NCBI GenBank assembly: GCA_049792755.1
Contig: JBARBF010000007.1
Location: 2,147-66,146, forward strand
Reading direction: 5' to 3'
From: Bacteroidales bacterium
GTDB lineage: Bacteria; Bacteroidota; Bacteroidia; Bacteroidales; VadinHA17
DNA length: 64,000 bases
The stretch's first letter is position 1. Each line of letters starts with the position of its first letter. Position numbers and translations under genes: made by a program. The notes under the pieces were generated by a model. It was not told the DNA's origin. It saw nothing but the letters and a program-made list of their open reading frames with translations, and did no database searches. Positions 47,038-62,957 of this stretch are shown in pieces.

Positions 47038-47229
47038 TTCTTAGAATGCTGCCATGTAACTGCTCTTTATGAAACTCATCTGCAACACCTTAGATGTCAG
47101 GAAGAGCAGATGTCCGAAATACTTTGATAAAAAATAACTTTTTTACAAAAGCTTAATTTTCAATTTAGAAGCAAACTAAAAAGTTGTATATTTGTTTAAC
47201 AGATAAAACAAACCTGACTAAAAGGAAAA

Positions 47230-47790
47230 TTGAAACTGTACATCAAAAATATGGTTTGTATACGGTGTAAGATGGTCGTTAAATCGGAGCTTGAAAAACT
47301 TGGATTACATTTTAGCACTGTCGAATTGGGTGAAGTTGAAATAACAGACAAGATTTCAAAAGATCAACTGGACAATCTGAGTGTTGCCCTGAAACTGACA
47401 GGACTTGAACTGATGGATGACAATAAAAAAATACTTATAGAGAAAATTAAAACCATAATCATTCAACTGATCCATTACAATGATGAACAAATCAAAATTA
47501 ACCTGTCAGATTACCTTAGTGAAAAACTCAATCATAATTATACATATCTATCCAACCTTTTTTCCGAAGTTACAGGGATTACGATCGAACAGTTTTACCT
47601 GGCAAATAAAATAGAAAGGGTAAAAGAACTACTTGTTTATGATGAGCTCAATCTTACGGAAATCGCCTGGAAACTTCATTACAGCAGTGTGTCCCATTTG
47701 TCAAACCAGTTTAAAAAAATGACAGGTCTCACACCTTCTCATTTTAAAAACCTCAGGATCAAAAGACGGATTGCACTGGGGAATCTTTAA
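47230..47790 (+). CDS. AraC-family transcriptional regulator with an N-terminal HMA-like (CxxC) domain, paralog 1
   Basis: 186 aa. TTG start, supported by collinear alignment with the paralog at 62050 (both begin MKLYIKNMVC.RCK). The N-terminal ~65 aa has the beta-alpha-beta-beta-alpha-beta pattern and M-x-C-x-x-C. The C-terminal part has AraC HTH motifs (LNLTEIAWKLHYSSVSHLSNQFKKMTGLTPSHF). Confidence 0.8.
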   Translation: MKLYIKNMVCIRCKMVVKSELEKLGLHFSTVELGEVEITDKISKDQLDNLSVALKLTGLELMDDNKKILIEKIKTIIIQLIHYNDEQIKINLSDYLSEKLNHNYTYLSNLFSEVTGITIEQFYLANKIERVKELLVYDELNLTEIAWKLHYSSVSHLSNQFKKMTGLTPSHFKNLRIKRRIALGNL

Positions 47791-47873
47791 CCTATTATAT
47801 CTGTTTCCTGTACATCTAAACGTTTGCCTGTCGGGCATGGCGACAGAATCCTCTTTTTTTTATATCCTGATGT

Positions 47874-47937
47874 GTGAATAATGTAACTTATTACAGGAAT
47901 AATGTAACTGATAGAGGTCTTGCAGGCTCTACCTTTG
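47874..47937 (+). promoter_or_regulatory. operator/promoter cassette A (GTGAATA-ATGTAAC-N14-ATGTAAC-N21-TACCTTTG)
   Basis: ATGTAAC at 47881 and 47902 (21-bp spacing). -7 box TACCTTTG at 47930. The first downstream gene starts at 48005. Confidence 0.7.
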
Positions 47938-50618: not shown

Positions 50619-51719
50619 ATGCAGGGTGAAGAATTAAAGCTTCCATTTTACGCAAAGGTTACCATATTCCTTTTGGGCTTAATTGCTTTATTAGCAATAA
50701 TGTATGTTGCAAAAAGCATTATTATCCCTGTAGTTTTCGCAATAATCATTGCAATAGTACTCCACCCCGTGGTAAATTATATGGTGCGGATAAAAATTAA
50801 CAGGATATTAGCTATTATCCTCACAATGTTTCTTACTTTTTTAGTAATTGCCGCATTTGGCGCCGTTTTGTTTTCCCAGGCAAGCAAGTTTGGGGAATCG
50901 TGGCCTGTACTGGTCGGTAAATTTACCTCTCTGCTTAACCAGAGCATCGCAGATGCAGCCGATTATTTCAATAAGGATCCGCAGAAAATCCATGATTGGA
51001 TTACGAAAACCCAGGGTGAAATAATCAACATTAGTACTGCTGCTATCGGACAAACAATAGTCCTTCTCGGCAATGGTTTGATAATATTATTATTAATACC
51101 TTTTTACATCTTCATGATATTATTTTATCAGCCTTTATTAATTGAGTTTATTCGCAGACTCTCCGGGACAAATTACCAAAGTCATGTCAGGCAGATAGTT
51201 TCCCAGATAAAAACTGTTATTCAACGCTATCTTGTGGGGTTGGTTATCGAAGCAGTCCTGATGGCAGCGATGAATACCGCAGCTCTTTTAATACTTGGAA
51301 TCGAATATGCCTTCATTCTTGGCATTCTTGCAGCATTGCTCAATGTAATTCCCTACATCGGGGGGATCATTGCTGTTGCGATGCCGATGATGGTAGCCCT
51401 GGTCACCAAACCTTCACCCTGGTACGCTTTTTACATTCTGGCAGCTTATTATATTATCCAATTGATAGACAATCACTATATCGTTCCATATATTGTTGCT
51501 TCAAAAATAAAAATCAATGCGTTATTCTCCGTAATAGTTGTTCTTGCCGGAAATGCTTTATGGGGTATACCCGGAATGTTTCTATCGATGCCTGTACTTG
51601 CCATAATAAAGCTCATTTGCGACCATATAGAACCATTAAAACCGTGGGGCTATTTATTAGGTGATACCATGCCGCCATTACTTAAAATCAAAACGATATT
51701 AAAAAAAATAACTAAATGA
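50619..51719 (+). CDS. AI-2E (PerM/YhhT) family transporter
   Basis: 366 aa with about 8 TM helices. Conserved LLNVIPYIGGIIA and GIPGMFLSMPVLA blocks. Confidence 0.8.
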   Translation: MQGEELKLPFYAKVTIFLLGLIALLAIMYVAKSIIIPVVFAIIIAIVLHPVVNYMVRIKINRILAIILTMFLTFLVIAAFGAVLFSQASKFGESWPVLVGKFTSLLNQSIADAADYFNKDPQKIHDWITKTQGEIINISTAAIGQTIVLLGNGLIILLLIPFYIFMILFYQPLLIEFIRRLSGTNYQSHVRQIVSQIKTVIQRYLVGLVIEAVLMAAMNTAALLILGIEYAFILGILAALLNVIPYIGGIIAVAMPMMVALVTKPSPWYAFYILAAYYIIQLIDNHYIVPYIVASKIKINALFSVIVVLAGNALWGIPGMFLSMPVLAIIKLICDHIEPLKPWGYLLGDTMPPLLKIKTILKKITK

Positions 51720-52207
51720 TTGAATTCTCTGAACAATTATCAGGTCTGGAACAAAGTTTAATGAAGTATGCATATCACCTTAAATTAAGCAATGATGATG
51801 CGAGAGATCTTGTTCAGGAAACTTTTCTGAAAGCACTTTTGAGCCGGGAAAAATATGTAGATACCGGATTTCTAAAAGCCTGGACCATGACAATTATGAG
51901 AAACACATTTATCAATAGCTACAGGCATAATGTTCTGCATAACACCCATTGTGACCGTACTGATGAGGAATATTACATAAATCAGACAAAATGTTCAGGT
52001 TCAGACGACCCCGATTCCGTATATTCTGTTATGGAAATTACGAAAAGTATTGAACAATTAAAAGGAAAATTCAGGGTGCCATTTAAAATGTATGTTGCCG
52101 GTTACAGGTACAGGGAAATAGCTGATAAGTTTAATCTCAATCTAGGGACAGTAAAAAGCAGAATATTCCTGGCAAGAAAAGTGCTGATTAATCGAATAAA
52201 CTGTTAA
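51716..52207 (+). CDS. sigma-70-family (ECF-like) RNA polymerase sigma factor
   Basis: 163 aa. Region 2 (DLVQETFLKAL...AWTMTIMRNTFINSYR) and region 4 HTH (YREIADKFNLNLGTVKSRIFLARKVL). Its ATG overlaps the AI-2E stop (ATGA). Confidence 0.8.
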   Translation: MIEFSEQLSGLEQSLMKYAYHLKLSNDDARDLVQETFLKALLSREKYVDTGFLKAWTMTIMRNTFINSYRHNVLHNTHCDRTDEEYYINQTKCSGSDDPDSVYSVMEITKSIEQLKGKFRVPFKMYVAGYRYREIADKFNLNLGTVKSRIFLARKVLINRINC

Positions 52208-57330: not shown

Positions 57331-57427
57331 AATCCTTAAATTGCACAGACCTTAGCTATTATGCCTTCATTCCATTGCGTCGTTGAGCCACTGAGCCACT
57401 GTGCCTTTGCCTCTTACTCTCCAATAT

Positions 57428-57811: not shown

Positions 57812-60334
57812 ATGGACCCAAACTCAAAACCATTCTGGAGCCTATCTGTCACAGAATTACTTGTCAATTTTAAATCGACAGCAACAGGACTTACATCAGA
57901 AGATGCAAAAAAACGTCTTATTGAATATGGTACAAATCGTCTGAAGCCTCAGAAACGGTCAGATGCTTTTACGCTCCTTATCGGCCAGTTTAAAAGCCCT
58001 ATAATTCTTATTCTTTTATTTGCAACCGGTCTTTCATTGTTTTTGCATAATATTGTTGATGCTTCAATCATTCTTGTAATTGTACTCATAAGCGGACTTC
58101 TTGGGTTCTGGCAGGAACATGGTGCATCTGATGCGGTTGCAAAATTACTTGCAATTGTACAAATAAAAACAGCTGTATTACGCGATGGAGGTCAACGGGA
58201 AATTCATATTGAAGATGTTGTACCGGGTGATATCGTTGTTCTGAGTGCAGGTGATATAGTTCCGGGAGACTGTCTGCTTCTTGAATCAAAGGATCTTTTT
58301 GTTGATGAAGCTATGCTTACCGGGGAAACTTACCCGGTTGAAAAATTTGTTTCAGAGCTGGCGGCAGATACTGCTCTCTCAAAACGGACTAACTCCGTTT
58401 GGATGGGAACCCATATTGTAAGCGGAAATGCTAAGGCATTAGTTACACTTACTGGCAAAAACACAGAGTTTGGAAAGGTTTCGGAACGGCTTAAACTCAA
58501 ACCCCCGGAAACCGAATTTGAACGGGGCATACGGAGATTCGGCTATTTTCTTGGAGAAGTTACACTGTTCCTGGTAGTTATTATATTTGCCATTAATGTC
58601 TATTTACACCGGCCCGTTCTGGAATCATTTCTTTTTTCACTGGCCCTTGCTGTCGGATTAACTCCGCAATTATTACCTGCAATTATCAGCATCAACCTGG
58701 CACATGGTGCAAAAAAAATGGCTCAGAAGAAGGTTATCGTCAAAAGGCTTGCCTCTATAGAAAATTTTGGAAGCATGAATGTTATCTGTTCTGATAAAAC
58801 CGGTACCCTTACTGAAGGAACCGTAAAGGTAGAATCGGCGCTGGATGTTAACGGAGAGGCCAGCGATAAGGTATTCCTGTTTGCATATCTCAATGCATTT
58901 TACGAAACAGGATTTACTAACCCTATTGATCAGGCTATTCTTAATTATCGCAAGATTGACCTGTCGGATTATCGGAAACAGGATGAAATTCCATATGATT
59001 TCCTTCGGAAACGCCTGAGCATAGCTGTCATAAAAGAAAATGCTCATATTATGGTGACAAAAGGGGCATTGACCAACATACTGGAAGTGTGTTCATCAGC
59101 GGAAACCAAGGAAGGAAATATAGTTGACCTTGGATCTGTGAAGGATAAGATACAGAAACATTTTGAAGAATTCAGCAATAATGGTTTTCGCACTCTGGGT
59201 ATTGCTTATAAAAATATACCTGCGGATACTCTTATTAGTAAAAGCGATGAGAAGGAGATGATATTCTCAGGTTTTCTTACACTTTTTGATCCGCCAAAAG
59301 CAAATATCATCAATACAATTTCAAAGCTGAAGAAGCTTGGGGTATCTCTTAAAATTATAACAGGTGACAATCATCTTGTGGCGGCCAGCATCAGCAAAAA
59401 GATGGGTCTCTCGGATAATAAAATTATAAGTGGTCCTGAGCTCCGCCAGATGAGCGATGCCGCTTTGCTCAGAAGTGTTGGTTCAGTCGATGTATTTGCA
59501 GAAATAGAGCCCAACCAGAAAGAAAGGATTATTATAGCCATGAGGAAGGCCGGAAACGTTGTAGGATATATGGGTGATGGAATAAATGATGCCTCGGCAC
59601 TTCATGCTGCAGATGTTGGGATCTCTGTCGATACCGCAGCAGATGTAGCCAAGGATGCTGCCGATATTGTCCTGCTCGAAAAAGACCTGGGTGTCCTGAT
59701 TGAAGGCGTGAGAGAAGGACGTTCAACATTTGCCAATACTCTTAAATATGTATTTATGGCCACGAGCGCCAATTTTGGAAATATGTTCAGCATGGCCGGA
59801 GTATCGCTTTTTATTCCTTTTCTGCCATTGCTGCCCAAACAGATACTTCTCACCAACCTGATGACCGACTTTCCGGAAATGACAATCGCCACAGATAATG
59901 TTGATGATCAAATGATCGACTATCCACGTCGATGGGATATTAAGGCAATCCGTAAGTTTATGATCACCTTTGGACTTGTAAGTTCATTCTTTGACTATCT
60001 GACATTTGGCCTGCTGTTACTGATATTACATGCAAATGAGGGTCAGTTCAGAACCGGATGGTTTATAGAATCGGTTATTTCTGCATCAATGATTGTCCTT
60101 GTTATCCGGAGCAGAAAACCTTTTTTCAGGAGCAGACCCGGAAAATATCTGTTGATAGCAACATTATCGATAGCTGTTATTACATTGGTATTCCCGTTCA
60201 CACCGCTGGGAAATGTTTTTGGATTCAGCCCTTTAACCCTTTCAACATATTTATTCCTGGTGATGATAATTGCTGTTTATATTCTTGCCGCAGAAATTAC
60301 CAAAAGAATTTTTTATAAAAAGGTGAAATTTTAA
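57812..60334 (+). CDS. mgtA: magnesium-translocating P-type ATPase
   Basis: 840 aa. DKTGTLT phosphorylation site, TGDN and GDGINDA. MgtA-type C-terminal block NTLKYVFMATSANFGNMFSMAG...FLPLLPKQILLTNLMTDF. Confidence 0.8.
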   Translation: MDPNSKPFWSLSVTELLVNFKSTATGLTSEDAKKRLIEYGTNRLKPQKRSDAFTLLIGQFKSPIILILLFATGLSLFLHNIVDASIILVIVLISGLLGFWQEHGASDAVAKLLAIVQIKTAVLRDGGQREIHIEDVVPGDIVVLSAGDIVPGDCLLLESKDLFVDEAMLTGETYPVEKFVSELAADTALSKRTNSVWMGTHIVSGNAKALVTLTGKNTEFGKVSERLKLKPPETEFERGIRRFGYFLGEVTLFLVVIIFAINVYLHRPVLESFLFSLALAVGLTPQLLPAIISINLAHGAKKMAQKKVIVKRLASIENFGSMNVICSDKTGTLTEGTVKVESALDVNGEASDKVFLFAYLNAFYETGFTNPIDQAILNYRKIDLSDYRKQDEIPYDFLRKRLSIAVIKENAHIMVTKGALTNILEVCSSAETKEGNIVDLGSVKDKIQKHFEEFSNNGFRTLGIAYKNIPADTLISKSDEKEMIFSGFLTLFDPPKANIINTISKLKKLGVSLKIITGDNHLVAASISKKMGLSDNKIISGPELRQMSDAALLRSVGSVDVFAEIEPNQKERIIIAMRKAGNVVGYMGDGINDASALHAADVGISVDTAADVAKDAADIVLLEKDLGVLIEGVREGRSTFANTLKYVFMATSANFGNMFSMAGVSLFIPFLPLLPKQILLTNLMTDFPEMTIATDNVDDQMIDYPRRWDIKAIRKFMITFGLVSSFFDYLTFGLLLLILHANEGQFRTGWFIESVISASMIVLVIRSRKPFFRSRPGKYLLIATLSIAVITLVFPFTPLGNVFGFSPLTLSTYLFLVMIIAVYILAAEITKRIFYKKVKF

Positions 60335-60649: not shown

Positions 60650-60785
60650 TTTGAATATTATATAAGACATTTATTATGAAGAGGCTGTCTCAAAAGGGTA
60701 GCTTCTTTTTTTTGTTTTCCATTGCTTAGTGGTACCCTCCTCTCCCATTCAACCTTTGCGCCTTTGTGCCGTTACATAATAATAT

Positions 60786-61084: not shown

Positions 61085-61243
61085 CAGGTTTTTAAGCCGA
61101 ATGCTGTTATTCTCAACAAAGCAACCATCAGAAAATGTAACATTTAAAATCAATGCTTGGTCTCTTAGTGCCATTGTGCCGTTGTACCATTATACCGTTG
61201 CACCTTTGTGCCGTTGTACCGTAACGCCATTGTGTCATTATAC

Positions 61244-61835: not shown

Positions 61836-61863
61836 GAAACAATCTTAGTAATTTATTAAATGT

Positions 61864-61927
61864 GTGAATCATACAAATTTGATAAGCAATTGTGTAACAA
61901 TTCTGCTGCGTTAACAACTTACCTTTA
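61864..61927 (+). promoter_or_regulatory. operator/promoter cassette F (upstream of the second regulator gene)
   Basis: GTGAATC-ATACAAA (61871) -N14- GTGTAAC (61892) -N21- TACCTTTA (61920). A leader hairpin ATCGGGCA...TGCCCGAT follows at 61927-61966. Confidence 0.55.
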
Positions 61928-62049: not shown

Positions 62050-62610
62050 ATGAAGCTCTATATTAAAAATATGGTGTGCGACCGCTGCAAAGCGACAGTT
62101 AAAACTGAACTTGATAAACTGGCTATCCGATATCTTTCATTGGATTTAGGTGAAGTCATTATCAGGAAAAAACTGACGTCAGAGCAACATCATTTATTGC
62201 AGTTGTCGTTGGAACAGTTTGGATTTGAATTGATAGACGATAAGAAAAAAGATCTTATTGAAAAATTGAAGAGAGCCATTTTTGATCTTGAAAGGTATTC
62301 TGACGAAGATTTAAAAACAAGTTATTCGGATTTCATCAGTCTGAGTGTAAATGACAACTTCATTTCCCTTAACACCCTCTTTTCAGAGATAGAAGGTATA
62401 ACAATTGAAAAATATATAATCAAACAAAAGATTGAGCTGGTAAAAGAATTGCTCGGTCATAATAATCTCAATATTACAGAAATAGCGGTGAAAATGCATT
62501 ACAGTGATGTCGCCCACTTGTCCAGCGAGTTTAAAAGCATTACGGGTCTTACGCCATTGCACTTCCGTCAACTGCGGCACATCAGTTATAAAAATCAGGA
62601 GATCAGTTGA
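62050..62610 (+). CDS. AraC-family transcriptional regulator with an N-terminal HMA-like (CxxC) domain, paralog 2
   Basis: 186 aa. MKLYIKNMVCDRCKATVKTELDKL... Collinear with 47230..47790. AraC HTH (LNITEIAVKMHYSDVAHLSSEFKSITGLTPLHF). Confidence 0.8.
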   Translation: MKLYIKNMVCDRCKATVKTELDKLAIRYLSLDLGEVIIRKKLTSEQHHLLQLSLEQFGFELIDDKKKDLIEKLKRAIFDLERYSDEDLKTSYSDFISLSVNDNFISLNTLFSEIEGITIEKYIIKQKIELVKELLGHNNLNITEIAVKMHYSDVAHLSSEFKSITGLTPLHFRQLRHISYKNQEIS

Positions 62611-62716
62611 ATATTATTATGAAATCATCTTCTTCAATGGTTACGAGACAACCGGTCATATGTAAAGACTGAAATGTTCTTAAAAGACTTTCTTAATCAA
62701 CTTCCGGGATACATGA

Positions 62717-62845
62717 ATGAAAAGGTATATGATCAGGTTTGTTGATATTTCAAAATTTGTTGAAATGCTGGGAGGAAACATACATATGGAAAGCAAACCG
62801 GGTAAAGGGAGCCTGTTTGCATTTCCATTACCGACCTATATATAA
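62717..62845 (+). pseudogene. C-terminal remnant of a histidine-kinase HATPase_c domain
   Basis: The 42-codon frame reads MKRYMIRFVDISKFVEMLGGNIHMESKPGKGSLFAFPLPTYI*. The G2-box/C-terminal pattern (..MGG.I...S..GKGS.F.F.LP) is present, but the rest of the kinase is missing. Confidence 0.6.
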
Positions 62846-62893
62846 TTGACAATATATTTAACCGTCTGAATTATTAAGGTTTTCAGTCTATCT

Positions 62894-62957
62894 GTGAATT
62901 ATGTAACAATTTGTAAAAATTTTGTAACAATTCGAATCACAAAAAACAGGATTTTTA
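62894..62957 (+). promoter_or_regulatory. operator/promoter cassette G
   Basis: GTGAATT-ATGTAAC (62901) -N14- TTGTAAC (62922). The -7 position (62950) reads GATTTTTA, which is a weak match. Confidence 0.5.

Follow-up and report, generated by a model that had tools for sequence, protein, structure and literature searches.

An AraC-type regulator pair with a predicted heavy-metal-associated fold and a 38-nucleotide promoter cassette in a Bacteroidales genome

The window analysed here is a 64,000-nucleotide (nt) stretch of contig JBARBF010000007.1 (assembly GCA_049792755.1) from a Bacteroidales bacterium. It carries two related regulatory genes on the plus strand, paralog 1 (47230..47790) and paralog 2 (62050..62610), and seven copies of a 38-nt element that we refer to as the cassette. 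We consider it very probable that both proteins are activators of the AraC/XylS type, built on a heavy-metal-associated (HMA) fold, and that they act on the genes preceded by cassettes. The explanation that best accounts for the results as a whole adds to this a two-tier arrangement of the paralogs and an input of the thiol type, and to this complete reading we assign a probability of about 0.5. The two open reading frames (ORFs) each encode 186 amino acids (aa) and had been judged by eye in the initial annotation to be roughly half identical; BLASTP aligned them without gaps at 94/176 identities (53%) and 74% positives (E 2e-64). Both proteins begin MKLYIKNMVC(I/D)RCK, and both cysteine codons are intact in each gene (47257-47259 and 47266-47268 in paralog 1; 62077-62079 and 62086-62088 in paralog 2).

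The HMA-like domain of paralog 1 comprises residues 1-64 (47230..47421, plus strand) and contains the motif M8-x-C10-x-R12-C13. AlphaFold, supplied with an alignment of 97 sequences from diverse family members, modelled the full protein with a predicted local distance difference test score (pLDDT) of 94.1, rising to 95-98 over the HMA-like part, and a predicted template-modelling score (pTM) of 0.83. The model has strands at 2-6 (β1), 28-32 (β2), 35-38 (β3) and 60-62 (β4) and helices at 11-23 (α1) and 44-56 (α2), so that residues 1-62 follow the β-α-β-β-α-β order of the ferredoxin-like HMA fold. No flexible linker is predicted; the first helix of the DNA-binding domain (65-82) comes directly after β4. 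When the whole model was searched with Foldseek, AraC-type domains were returned first, and the N-terminal part then matched Atx1, TTHA1718, CopZ, GolB and HAH1. The fold was also recovered when residues 1-70 were modelled alone (pLDDT 83), and this model matched TTHA1718, CopZ, a B. anthracis copper protein, an HMA7 domain, Atx1, MerP and HAH1 in the PDB with probabilities of about 1.0 and template-modelling (TM) scores of 0.6-0.7. Nearly all of the top matches of the N-terminal domain were copper or mercury chaperones or metal-binding domains of ATPases.

A profile of 54 N-terminal domains gave the same answer at the sequence level, with PDB matches to ATP7B (E 9e-10), ATP7B domains 5-6 (E 1.7e-7) and CopZ (E 3.6e-4). 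These alignments span the whole domain and place M-x-C-x-x-C in register, with two short loop deletions (α1-β2 and β2-β3). Single sequences were more variable in their response to the Pfam HMA model (PF00403; threshold 24.8 bits): 24/54 family members gave matches of their own, the best at 1.3e-6; paralog 2 reached 14.7 bits (E 0.041), full-length paralog 1 gave no match and its N-terminal domain alone scored 13.5 bits. Two relatives of paralog 2 carry the JGI name 'copper chaperone CopZ'. Structure prediction, Foldseek and the profile match thus agree with the HMA-type ferredoxin-like domain that the initial annotation had proposed, and the N-terminal domain is predicted to be a genuine HMA fold that replaces the cupin or other ligand domain usual in AraC proteins.

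The remainder of the protein is an AraC/XylS-type DNA-binding domain (residues 65-177 of paralog 1; 47422..47760, plus strand), modelled as seven helices (65-82, 92-100, 104-115, 119-136, 142-148, 154-165 and 169-177) with two helix-turn-helix (HTH) motifs. Pfam HTH_18 recognised it at 65.1 bits in paralog 1 and 47.0 bits in paralog 2 (cut-off 33.6), and HTH_AraC at 39.8 and 31.1 bits (cut-off 26.6). Target-normalised Foldseek TM scores were 0.72-0.82 to AraT, YesN, GadX, MarA, AdpA and AraC, while sequence matches in the PDB were led by YesN (3lsg, E 1.2e-8) and AraT (6swi, E 7.4e-8), followed by XylR, SoxS, AraC and MarA.

The fold described above depends on where translation of paralog 1 begins. 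Paralog 2 starts with ATG and paralog 1 with TTG, as had been proposed, and we regard the TTG start as real and the long form as correct because the residues KLYIKN that precede Met8 are conserved at the protein level in 92 orthologous genes (80 loci), because these genes start at exactly the same codon (TTG in 62/92, ATG in 27/92), and because the residues before Met8 form strand β1 of the predicted fold. That a weak start codon has been conserved suggests that levels of the protein are held low. Since the true start is usually TTG, public entries are often shortened, beginning at Met8 (179 aa) or Met15 (172 aa; entries P0002, P0007 and P0015 are examples of such calls). A start at Met8 removes strand 1 and one at Met15 removes the entire cysteine motif, and such gene calls hide the N-terminal domain from automatic annotation.

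We turn now to the DNA element. The seven cassettes of the window (A to G) start at 47870, 52249, 57424, 60782, 61240, 61860 and 62890, and share the consensus TGTGAATnATGTAAC-N10-AATTnTGTAAC, that is, two direct repeats of the AATnATGTAAC type placed 21 bp apart. Cassette A lies directly 3' of paralog 1 and, with a 22-nt spacer and the -7 box TACCTTTG, forms a unit at 47870..47937 (plus strand). A terminator-like hairpin with a T-run (47828..47846, plus strand) parts paralog 1 from this unit. In a position-weight scan of the 4-Mb genome, 12 sites reached at least 18 bits, and 7 of them are in the window. The scan demanded TGTAA in the proximal repeat and thereby missed one further good copy, GTGAATGATGTAACTTTTTCTGAAAGTTATATAA, at C63:3555-3588 (minus strand) of the same genome. 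As a separate observation, cassettes C, D and E are each immediately preceded by runs of an 8-nt unit of the CCnTTGTG / GCCACTGn type (57380-57408, 60745-60773 and 61155-61239).

The cassette travels with the regulator. It was present in 76/80 ortholog loci that encode a relative of paralog 1, with 188 matches in 885 kb compared with 0 in shuffled sequence, and very often starts 4 nt before the stop codon of the regulator gene. Among 151 genomes, a strict cassette pattern, too stringent for distant clades, matched 14, of which 12 carry the family, and all genomes with at least two strict matches do so (7/7). We take the link between regulator and operator to be well supported, though indirect. 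The position of the cassette relative to the promoter is also highly regular: the TTTG of TAnnTTTG begins 26 nt past the cassette in 102/188 matches and 25 nt past it in 15. Spacing of this kind points to a class-II activator site that takes the place of the -33 element, and not to a promoter for an alternative sigma factor. We did consider the cassette (GTAAC ... TGT) as a promoter for the extracytoplasmic function (ECF) sigma factor encoded at 51716-52207, and rejected this because a TAnnTTTG -7 box follows at a fixed 22 nt and because the cassette accompanies the AraC gene rather than a sigma gene.

The two paralogs differ in how they are themselves expressed. Paralog 1 has an ordinary -7 box of the Bacteroidota type, TATATTTG, and there is no cassette upstream of the gene, where the best score within 400 nt is -3.2 bits. 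The initial annotation was right about this TAnnTTTG promoter but had put it at about 47197; the box lies at 47187..47194 (plus strand). Paralog 2, as had also been noted, sits behind cassette F (61860-61897), which lies 190 nt before its ATG and is followed 22 nt on by TACCTTTA, so that the paralog-2 promoter occupies 61860..61927 (plus strand). An F-type cassette with a distinctive CATAyAAA half-site is found upstream of the gene in 6/6 paralog-2 ortholog loci. In contrast, among genes of the paralog-1 type (Asn7) only 2/71 have a cassette within 400 nt upstream, and 54/71 have one at or just after the stop codon; in the Tyr7-Ser10 clade, 11/24 have a cassette within 400 nt upstream, and one at the stop codon is not a consistent feature. 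The two-tier design is thus conserved, since the F-type cassette is upstream in every one of the paralog-2 loci, and the suggestion that the two genes form an autoregulatory or feed-forward pair gains support from this wiring.

Paralog 2 is not a plain duplicate of paralog 1; recognition-helix positions 104 and 160 have diverged. Tyr104, in recognition helix 1 and otherwise invariant in the family, is Phe in the paralog-2 lineage, and Gln160, in recognition helix 2, is variable there and Glu in the copy in the window. On the family tree paralog 2 belongs to a third, long-branched lineage, whose members are 67-96% identical to it and strictly keep CxxC.

What do the cassettes control? In the window they precede genes for DUF5670 peptides, tail-anchored small proteins, YtxH, a cupin-like protein, a holin-X-like protein, an AI-2E transporter, an ECF sigma factor, a DUF6600 protein, MlaE/F/D-like components of an ABC transporter, a P-type ATPase (57812-60334; Cation_ATPase_N/C domains, of the non-heavy-metal pump type) and a cold-shock protein. 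Cassette G (62890..62927, plus strand) lies ahead of a CheB-CheR-PAS gene (63193 onwards). Elsewhere in the genome, cassettes precede genes for a coiled-coil membrane protein, a 572-aa protein and an ECF sigma factor with its neighbour, a putative anti-sigma factor. The regulon is one of envelope and general-stress genes, not of metal-detoxification or thiol-repair genes. At C102:20053 of the same genome, a weak cassette-like site (22.8 bits) with TATCTTTG at the correct spacing precedes genes for a GW-rich membrane peptide of 41 aa and for a CopA-type P1B ATPase with a canonical HMA domain. This site may have arisen by chance; were it genuine, the ATPase gene would be the sole metal gene of the regulon.

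Paralog 1 and paralog 2 are members of one large Bacteroidota family that is apparently unstudied. A search at 90% identity gave at least 8000 clusters, and an exhaustive search at 50% identity gave 607 clusters with E<1e-30, nearly all of about 186 aa and matched over their full length. The family is carried by 81/151 evenly sampled Bacteroidota genomes and 56/89 genera, in 1-5 copies each. The closest relatives of paralog 1 are from uncultured Bacteroidales of fens, permafrost and soil; farther ones are from Prolixibacteraceae, Carboxylicivirga, Chitinophagaceae, Mucilaginibacter, Lacihabitans and Flavobacteriales. In F. psychrophilum, three AraC genes that may or may not be members are upregulated in biofilm (PMC5787105). 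Besides its two full copies, the genome studied here has one ORF of 79 aa that corresponds to the N-terminal domain only, outside the window at C135:32980-33219 (MKIYIKNMVCLGTRF...). Over 61 aa its identity is 39%; Arg12 and Cys13 have been lost, and there is no DNA-binding domain. The ORF sits between a gene for an Fe/Mn superoxide dismutase and a UspA-type gene.

The distribution of the loop residues across this family bears directly on the nature of the input. Conservation of the cysteines among orthologs had been set out as a test of the metal- or thiol-sensing idea, and Cys10 failed it in part, whereas Cys13 withstood it. Every gene from the ortholog loci encodes Cys13 (92/92), as do 134/145 distant representatives, of which 126/145 have Arg12. 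Among relatives of paralog 1 with at least 78% identity, 99 cover position 10, which is Ser in 18 and Cys in 81; in the 152 aligned sequences (150 representatives and the two window proteins) CxxC occurs 83 times and SxxC 45 times. In a tree of 96 family genes, computed after removal of the motif columns, at least 13 changes between Cys and non-Cys are required at this position, only 3 of them forced by strongly supported branches. The replacement is Ser or Thr, and the Tyr7-Ser10 clade wholly lacks Cys10. A few distant members in the phylum sample lack both cysteines, and 18/137 family genes (phylum sample loci L087-L223) have the CopZ-like loop C-x-H-C instead of C-x-R-C.

Cys10 is favoured all the same. 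In the even phylum sample CxxC is found in 108/135 genes (80%) and in 39/42 genomes with a single copy, and only 4/79 genomes have no CxxC copy at all, compared with 9.4 +/- 2.1 expected under random dealing (P 0.008). We also considered a rule of at least one CxxC copy per genome. Although it holds statistically in the even sample, this rule was broken by 11/17 assemblies that were checked, all with a Ser/Thr10 gene of the paralog-1 type, and we rejected it. Where a Ser/Thr10 regulator is the sole copy, strong cassettes are still found at its stop codon. The description of the CxxC as intact accordingly stands for both window proteins and for the paralog-2 lineage, in which Cys10 is present in 118/118 sequences, but does not extend to the family at large. 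The pattern appears to be that of one essential cysteine beside an invariant arginine at a helix N-terminus, together with a favoured but dispensable second cysteine. As judged from conservation, it resembles one-Cys/two-Cys thiol switches rather than the two-thiolate metal site of the chaperones, and suggests that the evidence on the signal shifts from a 'CxxC metal site' towards a Cys13-centred site with an optional second cysteine.

These observations can be combined into a mechanism. Two regulator molecules would occupy the tandem repeats from the same face of the DNA and, by replacing the -33 element, would activate transcription in class-II fashion at the seven cassettes of the window and about six more in the genome. 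Paralog 1, with its own -7 box, TTG start and terminator, would be the primary regulator, made constitutively at a low level. Paralog 2, transcribed from cassette F, would provide positive feedback or a second tier. Because its DNA-contacting helices have diverged, it would probably shift specificity or form mixed complexes, and not simply raise the dose of an identical regulator. As for the input, the former metal loop may have become a thiol switch whose centre is Arg12-Cys13, at the N-terminal end of helix 1, with Cys10 as an optional second cysteine, resolving or ligand, in the manner of one-Cys and two-Cys OhrR. Oxidation or bridging at the loop would then control the pairing of two HMA-like domains and, through it, cooperative occupancy of the half-sites. 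We put forward the switch at Arg12-Cys13 only tentatively, at somewhat less than even odds; a one-Cys switch with an optional second cysteine, or dimerisation through the loop, would in any case be favoured over chelation of a metal by two cysteines.

Several points weigh against this explanation. No thioredoxin, peroxidase, catalase or metal exporter was found among the cassette-driven genes. The invariant cysteine may be purely structural, and Cys13 may be either exposed or packed against the DNA-binding domain. Because histidine-kinase and receiver genes are frequent neighbours, partner proteins may supply the input instead. Counts of clusters and of metagenome-assembled genomes (MAGs) lack phylogenetic independence, and the MAGs may be incomplete. 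Finally, a literature search found no description of any family member and no experimental datum on one.

The alternative that survives best is that the HMA-like domain senses nothing and serves only for dimerisation or stability, the regulators being controlled by their abundance, as MarA and SoxS are. Indeed, the protein amounts to a MarA-sized DNA-binding domain with 62 aa added and no linker; the start codon is TTG in most orthologs and the two-tier wiring is conserved, both of which would suit control by abundance; Cys10 is dispensable; and the window proteins fall below the Pfam HMA threshold. Against such a degenerate scaffold, Arg12-Cys13 is nearly invariant over hundreds of 50%-identity clusters in which most surface positions vary, and sole copies keep CxxC above chance. 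In addition, if the master regulator were constitutive and received no input, the regulon would never be off, which is a poor fit to its stress-type content. We regard this alternative as unlikely.

A classic metal sensor seems more doubtful still. Here the CxxC would chelate Cu(I) or another soft metal (Hg, Cd, Zn or Ag), as in CopZ and Atx1, and loading, possibly with bridging of two domains, would switch the activator on. M-x-C-x-x-C is intact in both window proteins and in the canonical place, at the end of the β1-α1 loop and in the first turn of α1. Met8 and Leu/Phe59, which support the loop, line up with the equivalent residues of CopZ and the ATP7B domains, and the prevalence of CxxC, the CopZ-like loops, the unbroken record of the paralog-2 lineage and the weak cassette before the CopA-type ATPase can all be cited in its favour. 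However, Cys10 has been replaced by Ser or Thr at least 13 times, including in sole copies with an intact cassette alongside, and a single cysteine cannot form a chaperone-type two-thiolate site inside one domain. Furthermore, no gene for a P1B ATPase, an RND or CDF exporter or a metallothionein lies behind a strong cassette; the cassette-driven ATPase in the window is of the non-heavy-metal type, and the CopA-linked site is possibly due to chance. Taken together, we judge this reading improbable.

The neighbouring kinases raise a further question. In 6/6 paralog-2 ortholog loci an intact gene for a HisKA/HATPase kinase of about 300 aa lies 0-40 nt 3' of the regulator, followed by a G-type cassette and then a gene for a 972-aa CheB-CheR-PAS protein. 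In the window this kinase is a remnant (62697..62845, plus strand): a deletion of about 775 nt has spared no more than the last ~50 codons, and 62697-62747 contains two in-frame stops. The segment 62753-62845 encodes the last 30 residues, KFVEMLGGNIHMESKPGKGSLFAFPLPTYI*, 70% identical to the C-terminus of the kinase. No close ortholog of the paralog-2 kinase was found elsewhere in the genome. Separately, four tandem HisKA/HATPase kinase paralogs, 44-49% identical to the paralog-2-associated kinase, are encoded at C162:4600-15500. Genes of the paralog-1 type are followed by a PAS-HK-REC-Hpt hybrid kinase in 26/80 loci and by a receiver-only protein in 16/80; for the hybrid kinase, the genome studied here offers no clear ortholog, the best match being at 42%. 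Genes for KaiC (about 577 aa) and a KaiB-like protein (about 115 aa) adjoin the regulator, behind cassettes, in 11-12/80 ortholog loci, which include L008, L024, L030-L032, L036, L039, L046, L047 and L061; the window has no KaiB or KaiC genes.

The neighbouring kinases may be inputs or merely members of the regulon, and they are not obligatory partners, because they are absent from this genome. A phosphorelay in which the HMA-like domain docks a histidine kinase, an Hpt protein or a receiver, making the regulator a 'split' AraC response regulator, would account for these neighbours and for a DNA-binding domain closest to those of YesN and AraT, but it is very improbable, since the kinases lie 3' of a cassette, the regulators and cassettes are intact in a genome where the paralog-2 kinase is a remnant and the hybrid kinase has no clear counterpart, and no phospho-acceptor is known in the HMA fold.

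If the proposed reading is true, a single small family present in about half of the sampled Bacteroidota genomes controls a compact stress and envelope gene set that can be recognised from sequence. This set would include the DUF5670 peptides, YtxH, CsbD, the holin-X-like protein, the Mla-type ABC genes, the P-type ATPase, Csp, an ECF sigma factor and, in some genomes, KaiBC. To our knowledge, Bacteroidota have no equivalent of RpoS, SigB or EcfG and no master stress regulator; a literature search for one in this phylum also found none. It is possible, though a good deal less than likely, that the family is an undescribed general-stress master regulator of environmental Bacteroidota in which a metallochaperone fold, converted into a one-Cys, optionally two-Cys, thiol switch, governs pairing on the tandem half-sites, and the strictly CxxC paralog-2 lineage, normally coupled to an orphan histidine kinase of its own, re-tunes the response. 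Whatever its function, the natural series of CxxC, SxxC and TxxC proteins is a ready-made set of mutants for the loop.

What is new here is an activator of a known kind, AraC/XylS, with a new input domain; were the proposed reading correct, it would be, as far as we know, the first bacterial AraC regulator with a metallochaperone fold in that role. The class-II activators of this group, AraC at araBAD (I1-I2 half-sites), RhaS/RhaR, XylS and MelR, share with the present proteins a two-HTH domain, tandem half-sites in direct repeat with a 21-bp spacing that adjoin the upstream promoter element or overlap it, and an N-terminal domain expected to supply pairing and signal input. They differ in that this domain is here a 62-aa HMA fold, rather than a cupin or sugar-binding domain, with neither a flexible linker nor an N-terminal arm, and in that the promoter is of the Bacteroidota -33/-7 type. 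MarA, SoxS and Rob of E. coli are similar in the size of the DNA-binding part and in their structural matches, and the two-step cascade from SoxR to SoxS, with its control by abundance, resembles the wiring of a constitutive master and an induced second copy. Unlike the paralogs, MarA and SoxS have no extra domain and bind as monomers to one asymmetric box; the conserved 62-aa addition and the site of two direct repeats 21 bp apart place the present proteins outside this class of minimal activators. YesN and AraT, which are REC-AraC regulators, have the closest DNA-binding domains by sequence, and histidine kinases are frequent neighbours here, but the N-terminal domain of the paralogs is no receiver and has no phospho-acceptor Asp motif.

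For the N-terminal domain itself, the relevant comparison is with CopZ, Atx1, HAH1, MerP and the domains of ATP7A/B and CopA (PF00403). The β-α-β-β-α-β order, the position of M-x-C-x-x-C and the hydrophobic residues that support the loop are common to all of them. In the regulators, by contrast, Cys10 is not conserved, Arg12 is a family-specific invariant, the α1-β2 and β2-β3 loops have small deletions, and the domain is fused to a transcription factor whose regulon lacks metal-handling genes. Possible functional parallels are RclR of E. coli, an AraC-family activator with a cupin-like N-terminal domain that is switched by reversible oxidation of cysteine, and OhrR, a family of MarR fold with an invariant sensing cysteine and an optional second one. 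Their sensor folds are unrelated to the HMA-like domain, and the likeness lies in the pattern of conservation, to which an invariant Arg12-Cys13 and an optional Cys10 conform.

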